Assembly: GCA_002382045.1 (NCBI GenBank)
Contig: DFZJ01000125.1
Coordinates: 1 to 53,287 of the forward strand
From: Syntrophaceae bacterium UBA4059
GTDB lineage: Bacteria; Desulfobacterota; Syntrophia; Syntrophales; Smithellaceae
Direction: 5' to 3'
Length of the DNA stretch: 53,287 nucleotides
The notes under the pieces are model-generated. The model saw only the letters and a program-made list of their open reading frames with translations. It was not told the origin of the DNA and ran no database searches. Position 1 is the stretch's first letter, and every line of letters starts with the position of its first letter. Positions 46,025-46,272 of the stretch are shown one piece after another. The translations under genes were made by a program, and so were the position numbers.

Positions 46025-46053
46025 TTGACTTTTATCAGTCATTTGCCTATACA
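46025..46053 (+). promoter_or_regulatory. Near-consensus sigma70-type promoter downstream of gltA
   Basis: TTGACT (46025-46030), 17-nt spacer, TATACA (46048-46053). Confidence 0.5.
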
Positions 46054-46078
46054 CGCGGCACATGAGGTGTCTTTAAAG

Positions 46079-46171
46079 ATGTTAAGAAAATGTTTATTCA
46101 CACAGGCAGTTAACTTTTACTTTTACTTTTTTAGCTTTACCGGCTTCAAGGTCTGCCTGAAAGTATCATGA
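46079..46171 (+). CDS. Candidate leader peptide (30 aa, Phe/Tyr-rich) or small hydrophobic protein
   Basis: ATG 46079 lies 11 nt after GAGG. It translates to MLRKCLFTQAVNFYFYFFSFTGFKVCLKVS*, with 7 Phe and 2 Tyr of which 8 fall in residues 13-23. The stop is 20 nt before the terminator stem. It is below the 60-aa cutoff of the ORF track. Confidence 0.4.
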   Translation: MLRKCLFTQAVNFYFYFFSFTGFKVCLKVS

Positions 46172-46190
46172 CCGATTGCAAAGGGAAATG

Positions 46191-46228
46191 AACCGTGGGC
46201 AGATTCAATTTGTCCACGGTTTTTTTTT
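46191..46228 (+). terminator. Strong intrinsic terminator 45 nt upstream of the transporter operon
   Basis: AACCGTGG (46191-46198) pairs with CCACGGTT (46214-46221), 15-nt loop, followed by a T9 run (46220-46228). Confidence 0.75.
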
Positions 46229-46272
46229 GCCGGAACAAAGGTGTCCAAACAATAAAACAGGGGGATGAAAAA

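Follow-up and report, generated by a model that had tools for sequence, protein, structure and literature searches.

A probable phenylalanine-sensing leader-peptide attenuator in front of an importer and acyl-CoA ligase operon in Smithellaceae

Why should a short reading frame crowded with phenylalanine and tyrosine codons, followed by a strong terminator, stand in front of the genes of an uptake system? The question is raised by contig DFZJ01000125.1 of Syntrophaceae bacterium UBA4059, of which a stretch of 53,287 nucleotides (nt) was analysed; this whole stretch is called the window, and all coordinates refer to it unless a locus is named. A sequence-only reading of this DNA had proposed an attenuator, and the comparative evidence now supports that interpretation. 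The element is very probably a ribosome-mediated leader-peptide transcription attenuator placed before a six-gene operon, and it would sense charged tRNA-Phe with a contribution from tRNA-Tyr. To judge from the sequences compared, it most likely turns on an operon for import and coenzyme A (CoA) ligation when phenylalanine is short. All the sequence-level features that define leader-peptide attenuators appear to be present, and the parts of the element, with its leader open reading frame (ORF), are as follows.

46025-46053, + strand: promoter, read from the sequence; TTGACT (46025-46030), a 17-nt spacer and TATACA (46048-46053)
46064-46067, + strand: Shine-Dalgarno-like GAGG, 11 nt upstream of the leader ATG
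46079-46171, + strand: leader ORF of 30 codons, MLRKCLFTQAVNFYFYFFSFTGFKVCLKVS, from ATG 46079 to the stop TGA at 46169-46171
46103-46109, + strand: segment 1, CAGGCAG, which pairs with segment 2 to give the protector helix 1:2 (RNAalifold consensus)
46115-46147, + strand: control codons F13 Y14 F15 Y16 F17 F18 S19 F20 T21 G22 F23
46150-46159, + strand: segment 2, GGUCUGCCUG, with segment 1 or segment 3 as alternative partners; it contains TCTGCC (46152-46157) and CTGCCTG (46153-46159)
46163-46193, + strand: inner part of the antiterminator, GUAUCAU (46163-46169) paired with AUGAAC (46188-46193) around a variable loop (minimum free energy fold)
46196-46205, + strand: segment 3, UGGGCAGAUU, which is both the 5' arm of the terminator and the antiterminator partner of segment 2; it contains GGCAGA (46198-46203)
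46190-46228, + strand: intrinsic terminator, with stem 46190-46204/46208-46222, loop CAA and T9 at 46220-46228

The leader ORF has 8 Phe and 2 Tyr codons among its 30 and is not called as a gene in the public assemblies. Eight of the 11 residues in the control region are aromatic, the highest density among the 472 ATG-started ORFs of 15-60 codons in the window. The Phe codons, plus some of the Tyr codons, are the presumed sites of ribosome stalling. An ACTTTT sequence occurs three times in a row at 46113-46130. The sequence-only reading had located this repeat, the promoter, the GAGG, the ORF from ATG 46079, the complementary segments, the T9 and the ATG of the binding-protein gene at 46273, and each of these was found where it had been placed. 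It was also right about a terminator ending in T9 downstream of the leader stop codon, but the 8-bp stem that it described was too short, since 11 contiguous pairs are present, or 15 when G-U and A-U pairs are counted (46190-46222), and the gap between stop codon and hairpin is 19 nt rather than 20. The GUAUCAU of the inner antiterminator takes in the first base of that stop codon. A promoter scan found no promoter-like site between the T-run and the binding-protein ATG (46229-46272), in agreement with the earlier view that no convincing promoter lies there. A second copy of the leader was looked for in the window and none was found.

Both promoter hexamers are near-invariant in 45 related loci, and they recur in the distant and sister elements described below. 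The consensus promoter scan did not list the TTGACT/TATACA site because its -10 box lacks the consensus final T. Transcription would start at about 46060. Relatives also conserve an A/T-rich block, AAGATAACTTTTTTC, which immediately precedes the -35 box and is a possible UP element. The 45 sequences were aligned as the close set (alignment A1), with the window as the reference for identity, and conservation of its GAGG/AAGG column is 90% or more. Two other reading frames were rejected. The frame from ATG 46188 (MNRGQ...) runs through the terminator and shifts with loop length in relatives (PRFFFA, TVFFC, HGFFLP), and a 48-codon ORF from a TTG at 46025 would start inside the -35 box. The F17 and F18 codons form a UUUUUU run (46127-46132) followed by A, which is potentially slippery; similar runs are reported to give incidental frameshifting in Escherichia coli pheL (PMC3082878).

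The upstream neighbour of the element is the type I citrate synthase gene gltA (44702-45988), and a comparison of loci was used to separate the two genes on either side. A scan of one genome per species gave 73 loci encoding relatives of the binding protein, and gltA lies upstream in only about 26 of these. An nhmmer profile was built from the intergenic regions that are syntenic with gltA. Its matches lie immediately before the binding-protein gene in 44 close loci, of which about 18 do not have gltA upstream, and are weaker in more distant loci. With the distant loci assessed by reading, the leader layout was found in 66 of the 70 orthologous loci that have enough upstream DNA, down to about 68% protein identity and including Desulfomonilia. 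Reading of the upstream regions showed that the element is missing from 4 loci at about 65% identity. Complete genomes that carry it include OY820932.1 and OY821638.1 (Smithellaceae). The element therefore travels with the importer operon and not with gltA.

Orthologous leaders keep the start, frame and stop of the ORF, and the aromatic run is present in all of them, as the sequence-only reading would have it. TTT and TTC interchange, as do TAC and TAT, and F, Y and C replace one another. In 44 of the 45 close loci, segments 1 and 2 are 38, 41, 44 or 47 nt apart, which leaves the frame unchanged. The exception is a Syntrophaceae metagenome-assembled genome (MAG; L018:2734-2953), in which the distance is 49 nt and out of frame with the other 44. 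The leader stop codon of this locus is thereby moved into segment 2 (GGGUCUGCCUGA), and its ATG comes almost directly after the -10 box.

Identity to the window across the 45 loci is 0.96 for segment 1, 0.98 for segment 2, 0.90 for segment 3, 0.95 for 46183-46195 and 0.995 for the T-run. The corresponding values are 0.55 for the 5' untranslated region, 0.62 for leader codons 1-8 and 0.52 for third codon positions of the binding-protein gene. The N-terminus of the leader and the 5' untranslated region thus drift at roughly the synonymous-site rate. Across the family, the leader ORFs pass through GGUCUGCC in all three frames (VCL, GLP or RSAR), and the leader peptides of distant orthologues are unrelated. 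By these two observations, what is conserved is an ORF with an aromatic codon run together with a set of RNA segments, and not a protein.

The distant orthologues have peptides of only 16-18 residues, which end in FGFFFFD* or FFFFFV* with a Phe-only run directly before the stop. Leaders of this short variant were found at L049:2760-2935 and also at L046, L047, L050-L057, L063, L070 and L073. In the Desulfomonilia type, only a few nucleotides separate the -10 box from the start of the ORF, which gives the mRNA a leaderless appearance, and the stop codon abuts segment 2 (UAG-GUCUGCCUGCG). Segment 2 of this type forms 12 bp with CGUAGGUAGACC, the 5' arm of the terminator, and the Phe codons together with segment 2 can instead pair with a downstream A-rich stretch, AGAUCUAGUCAAAAAAA. 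The conserved motif itself diverges to GCCGUAGGUAGACC in distant orthologues. These short leaders are a variant layout with the same switching logic.

RNAalifold on alignment A1 returned helix 1:2 (46103-46109 with 46153-46159) and the terminator. Helix 1:2 is paired in 97.5% of cells and shows compensatory changes, from C-G to A-U in 3 sequences and from A-U to G-C in 1. For the terminator, 93.7% of cells are paired, and three pairs covary. The alternative helix 2:3, formed by 46150-46159 and 46196-46205, has 90.7% of its cells paired in the close set. As isolated hairpins, 1:2, 2:3 (46150-46205) and 3:4 have folding energies of -13.3, -16.7 and -20.4 kcal/mol, respectively. The base of the antiterminator is GUCUGCCU:GGGCAGAU, above which GU.UCAU (46163-46169) pairs with AUGA.AC (46188-46193). 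This inner helix accounts for the conservation of TCATGACC and AAATGAACC. In the close set, 89% of its cells are paired and no change in it is compensatory; elsewhere in the family, this position is occupied by different inner helices. GGCAGA is invariant even where it is placed in the loop of the terminator (L022, L023, L025), which suggests that it is kept constant by something besides the terminator.

The wider family was also used to assess helix 2:3. Across 64 distinct members, 82.7% of cells are paired compared to 28-42% when the partner is slid, and one 2:3 pair reads G-C, G-U or A-U across groups. The antiterminator folds in all 79 distinct segment 2-to-3 stretches with a median of -20.5 kcal/mol, which is similar to the -20.6 kcal/mol median of the terminators. 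Shuffling the spacer makes every one of the 79 less stable.

The sequence-only reading had called for a test of mutually exclusive structures whose choice depends on the position of the ribosome. Constrained folding with a masked 30-nt ribosome footprint, without kinetics and with the transcript cut before segment 4 in the stall case, gave this behaviour. A footprint on Phe/Tyr codons 13-18 led to the 2:3 antiterminator. A footprint on the stop codon masked segment 2 and blocked 2:3, and the terminator formed.

The mechanism that we propose from these structures would run as follows. Transcription would begin at about 46060 from the conserved promoter, and a ribosome would translate the leader of 30 codons as RNA polymerase moves on into the segments downstream. 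With phenylalanine plentiful, the ribosome would reach the UGA at 46169, cover segment 2 (46150-46159) and melt the inner antiterminator helix. Segment 3 would then be left to pair with segment 4, and the resulting 15-bp hairpin with its U9 would end transcription at about 46228. With no translation at all, helix 1:2 (46103-46109 with segment 2) would form first and the terminator would follow. When charged tRNA-Phe is scarce, the ribosome would stall in codons 13-20, between segments 1 and 2, and prevent 1:2 from forming. Segment 2 would then be available to the emerging segment 3 (-16.7 kcal/mol, 46150-46205), the terminator would be pre-empted, and the polymerase would read into the operon. 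The start of transcription, the stalling and the Phe-dependent readthrough are predictions of this model, while the elements, their conservation, the maintained ORF frame, the complementarities, the limited covariation and the sister elements were observed computationally.

Sister elements were sought by scanning metagenomes with the pattern GGTCTGCC-N30-55-CCGTGGGCAG. At least 120 stretches were obtained, most of which are chance matches, and the nhmmer profile or a terminator requirement was applied as a filter. At least 23 passed, namely 21 by the profile plus L114 and L132. Among the matches listed were further importer operons as well as the GGUCUGCC...GCCGUGGGCAGA arrangement, here called the chassis, in front of other genes. 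The sister elements, including two found in MAGs, are given below by locus, leader and downstream gene.

L113: leader MSQTSGRHFYYFFYFFFGTGLPGVR (F/Y), before an AroFGH-type DAHP synthase
L142: leader ..GDFYRYYFRYDFYRTGLPEVR, before an AroFGH-type DAHP synthase
L109: leader MVKTFGKAFYLFFYYFAAMVCPFGWG, before a DAHP synthase I-beta and a prephenate dehydrogenase
L115: leader ..RFFYFHWYFYYWFRTGLPGVSLT (W/F/Y), before an unannotated ORF of the size of an ADH synthase and a 3-dehydroquinate synthase II
L122: leader ..QFFGCWFYFWFYYAGVCPQPGVDL (W/F/Y), before an ADH synthase
L107 and L126: leader ..DGFYSFFFIFCRVCPLCL (F in L107), before an acyl-CoA ligase of 514 amino acids
L114: leader ..HCYYGYGYLRRSARR (Y), before a distant Peripla_BP_6 binding protein
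L127:5740-13819: leader MGGQLLNIWWWWCKEKGGVCP (WWWW), before iorA, iorB, LivH, LivM, LivG, LivF and a PaaK-like ligase
L198:2700-3000, complete Desulfobacterales MAG CP070746.1: leader MTFQSSGRYFFYYGYFYFGTGLPGVR (F/Y-rich), before aroG-aroB-CM-aroE-aroA
L199:8730-10821, Syntrophaceae MAG: leader MGSRILNLWWWWWGKKRGGVCP (WWWWW), before iorA

The codon run fits the target in these elements. Trp codons precede the indolepyruvate enzyme, mixed aromatic codons precede the common pathway and Phe codons precede the window operon; the leaders before DAHP synthase (L113, L142, L109) carry F/Y codons, or F/Y with one Trp codon. This fit supports attenuation by codon sensing and is hard to explain in another way. 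Trp leaders precede iorA in both L127 and L199, and the operon in L127 looks like one for attenuation-controlled salvage of indoleacetate to tryptophan. Another match, L146, was rejected as due to chance.

Two features of individual members were also recorded. In many members outside Smithella, a second hairpin (GGCCGUGG-loop-CCACGGCC) with a T-run directly follows the first terminator, for example at L066:2901-2927, L058:2944-2975, L065:2924-2953, L107:2896-2921 and L113 (reverse complement, 3093-3128); L198 likewise has a second hairpin after the chassis and upstream of the aro operon. This hairpin may be a tandem or back-up terminator, and none is present in the window. In L132:3370-3545, a high-GC metagenome contig, a GGTCTGCC...CCGTGGGCAGA...terminator chassis lies downstream of an ORF that has no aromatic run and upstream of a gene for an EF-G-like GTPase. 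Either L132 matches by chance, or its chassis is combined with another kind of sensor.

Several observations weigh against attenuation by Phe codons and have to be set beside the evidence above. The 11-nt spacing between the Shine-Dalgarno-like sequence and the ATG is long, and the -10 hexamer is non-consensus. In a free transcript cut before segment 4, the minimum free energy fold already favours 2:3 over 1:2, and so the role of segment 1 would depend on the order of folding during transcription and not on thermodynamics. In the close Smithella set, the bases of helix 2:3 are near-invariant and no compensatory change was found in it. Covariation in the wider set is modest, with double changes at one pair, and support of this kind for 2:3 seems to come only from the wider family. 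The bases GGTCTGCC and CCGTGGGCAG were built into the metagenome members by the search pattern, and their conservation there is partly a matter of ascertainment; the spacer-shuffle result and the protein-anchored loci are free of this bias. Lastly, the operon is not an obvious Phe-supply operon, given its generic LIV-type binder and fatty-acid-like ligase, and for this reason we infer the physiological logic from the sister elements.

Other explanations of the same features were considered, all of them improbable. The least improbable is that the hairpins form a conditional terminator that is read by a trans-acting factor (a protein, a small RNA or a small molecule) binding GGUCUGCC / GCCGUGGGCAGA, and that the leader ORF is secondary. 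Such a factor could account for the primary sequence of segments 2 and 3, which is unusually conserved across operons and orders, and for L132, which bears the chassis without an aromatic run in its upstream ORF. However, each base of these segments serves two pairings, which is alone enough to slow change, and part of the conservation comes from the search pattern. Distant orthologues do diverge, to GCCGUAGGUAGACC, and no riboswitch or T-box model matches. Moreover, the ORF frame is maintained and its codons track the target, with W before iorA, F/Y before aro genes and F before the window operon. It is likewise improbable that the terminated transcript of about 170 nt is chiefly a stand-alone or dual-function trans-acting small RNA, similar to rnTrpL of Sinorhizobium, with control of the operon as a by-product. 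Attenuator-derived small RNAs with functions in trans are known (PMC6614838), and the element has its own conserved promoter and a strong terminator. Yet it always lies immediately upstream of the operon and in the same orientation, with no promoter between them, and the sister copies likewise lie before aromatic-pathway genes. A role in trans would in any case add to attenuation in cis and not replace it.

Two alternatives that the sequence-only reading had raised fared worse. It is very improbable that the ORF encodes a functional small hydrophobic peptide with a terminator of its own. The product of 30 residues is indeed hydrophobic and Phe-rich, and its C-terminus, KVCLKVS, is conserved in the Smithella relatives, but this C-terminus coincides with RNA segment 2, which the family reads in all three frames. 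The N-terminus evolves at about the synonymous-site rate (0.62 compared to 0.52 identity), and the 16-18-residue peptides of distant orthologues have only the Phe run in common with it. That the hairpin does no more than terminate gltA, with Phe codons produced by chance from a T-rich repeat, deserves next to no credence. A scan of the window found no other terminator between the gltA stop (45988) and 46190, so that gltA transcripts probably extend through the leader and stop at the attenuator hairpin. The hairpin would then serve gltA as well, but the element is also found before importer operons whose upstream gene is not gltA, carries a conserved promoter and keeps its ORF in frame, and the chassis recurs before aro, ior and ligase genes elsewhere. 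Attenuation by ribosome stalling at Phe codons, with some input from Tyr codons, is thus the interpretation that we carry forward.

The operon that would be controlled in this way consists of the following genes.

46273-47478, + strand: gene 1, periplasmic binding protein (Pfam Peripla_BP_6, LIV/HAAT type)
47559-48392, + strand: gene 2, LivG-like ATP-binding cassette (ABC) ATPase, with the start taken from public gene calls
48405-50333, + strand: gene 3, AMP-forming acyl-CoA ligase, FadD11-like, 642 amino acids
50345-51223, + strand: gene 4, LivH permease
51230-52300, + strand: gene 5, LivM permease
52318-53118, + strand: gene 6, LivF ATPase

The next gene encodes an unrelated AAA_14/DUF4143 protein, and therefore the operon has six genes and ends at 53118. 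Wherever a locus extends far enough, the genes for the binding protein, LivG and the ligase stand in this order. The binding protein matches a protein that NCBI names from Smithella with 100% identity, and orthologues of it are named from Smithella or Smithellaceae. Its best match among solved structures is 3lkb, a generic LIV-type amino-acid binder (E = 8.5e-29), with aromatic-acid and fatty-acid binders as remote matches. The ligase matches luciferase/FadD-type enzymes broadly and is of the FadD or long-chain type. The substrate of the importer and ligase does not appear to be fixed by sequence alone.

If the attenuator responds to aromatic codons, the operon would raise the supply of Phe/Tyr, although this step is less certain than the attenuation itself. 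It may import Phe/Tyr themselves, which would be plain uptake. We tentatively entertain a second route, by analogy with other systems, in which the operon would import aryl acids such as phenylacetate or 4-hydroxyphenylacetate and activate them with CoA. The aryl acid, once imported and converted to its CoA ester, would then undergo reductive carboxylation to the arylpyruvate by a ferredoxin-dependent arylpyruvate oxidoreductase. Salvage of aryl acids is strongly suggested by the operon at L127, where a Trp leader controls iorAB, ABC transporter genes and a PaaK-like ligase. A broader proposal, somewhat less likely than not, is that these elements make up a modular regulon across Syntrophales, Desulfomonilia and Desulfobacterales, in which one chassis with interchangeable Phe, Tyr, Trp or mixed runs coordinates de novo synthesis, by DAHP synthase or by ADH synthase/DHQ synthase II, with aryl-acid salvage. 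If true, this would assign a function to the widespread cluster of a LIV transporter plus long-chain CoA ligase and an anabolic role to bacterial indolepyruvate oxidoreductase.

Even apart from the regulon, the attenuator would label the operon as switched on under Phe/Tyr shortage, which is a clue to the substrate of the cluster. The sister leaders, with F, Y, W or mixed runs on one chassis, amount to a natural codon-swap series. Because phenylacetate is common in digesters and sediments, a regulon that includes likely aryl-acid salvage would matter to the syntrophs living there. The mechanism itself is that of the textbook; what is added is a lineage of under-studied anaerobes, Smithella and its relatives among the Thermodesulfobacteriota, and a target that joins an ABC importer to an acyl-CoA ligase.

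Searches of Rfam and of the literature were made for earlier descriptions. At a permissive threshold, Rfam gave only a weak match to L20_leader in the region around 46 kb (45800-46500), with 20.4 bits compared to a gathering score of 58.7, and this match was dismissed as a terminator artefact. None of the Phe_leader, Trp_leader, His_leader, Leu_leader and Thr_leader models matched at its gathering score. Over the whole window and 8 related loci, Rfam returned nothing but tRNAs and a group II intron domain, with no riboswitch or T-box. Literature searches found no description of such an attenuator or of the importer-plus-ligase cluster in Smithella. The sequence-only reading had known of no aromatic-codon attenuator on an operon of this kind, and neither search contradicts it. 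The element apparently represents a previously uncatalogued and undescribed family of aromatic-amino-acid attenuators in relatives of the sulfate reducers and syntrophs.

A few other features of the window were noted. The gene miaA, for tRNA isopentenyltransferase (PF01715), lies at 8514-9425 (+). The tRNAs modified by MiaA are those for UNN codons (Phe, Tyr, Trp), and the enzyme influences attenuation in E. coli; the presence of miaA in the window is probably coincidental. A tRNA gene is found at 23471-23544 (+). The group II intron catalytic-domain match at 25120-25217 (-) scores 40.8 bits compared to a gathering score of 40 and adjoins an unannotated 334-codon ORF at 25457-26461 (-).

Several known systems resemble the element or its proposed use. 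Methanococcus maripaludis can obtain Phe, Tyr and Trp from aryl acids, which are imported, activated with CoA and reductively carboxylated in a ferredoxin-dependent step by indolepyruvate oxidoreductase (Porat et al., as cited in PMC4162585). The resemblance to this route is a metabolic analogy only, and the window ligase belongs to a different AMP-binding subfamily from PaaK. The T-box of Firmicutes uses uncharged tRNA to switch between terminator and antiterminator before genes of aromatic biosynthesis and uptake (Panina et al. 2003, cited in PMC1262725). In contrast to the window element, the T-box binds tRNA directly without a leader ORF, and no T-box model matches the window element. In Salmonella, translation of the leader ORFs mgtL and mgtP likewise controls transcription of transporter genes (mgtA and mgtCBR), a precedent for codon-run attenuation that reaches beyond biosynthetic operons (PMC3641672). 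These leaders use Pro codons and, in some cases, Rho or Mg2+ riboswitch elements, whereas the window element combines Phe/Tyr codons with a plain intrinsic terminator.

The trpL leaders of proteobacteria share the four-segment logic, in which a stalled ribosome frees segment 2 and a ribosome at the stop codon masks it. The control codons of trpL lie inside segment 1, whereas those of the window element lie in the loop between segments 1 and 2, and the sister elements with WWWW(W) runs control indolepyruvate oxidoreductase operons and not trpE. The E. coli pheL/pheA and pheM/pheST systems are alike in their short leader ORF with a Phe run, their alternative 1:2, 2:3 and 3:4 hairpins and their intrinsic terminator. 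In both pheL (reviewed in PMC3082878) and pheM, the signal is a ribosome stalled at Phe codons, and pheM also has Tyr. The window element comes from a different phylum and has no sequence or covariance-model similarity to these leaders (no Rfam match). Its stop codon sits inside the antiterminator hairpin, and its target is an ABC importer with an acyl-CoA ligase in place of a biosynthetic enzyme or a tRNA synthetase.

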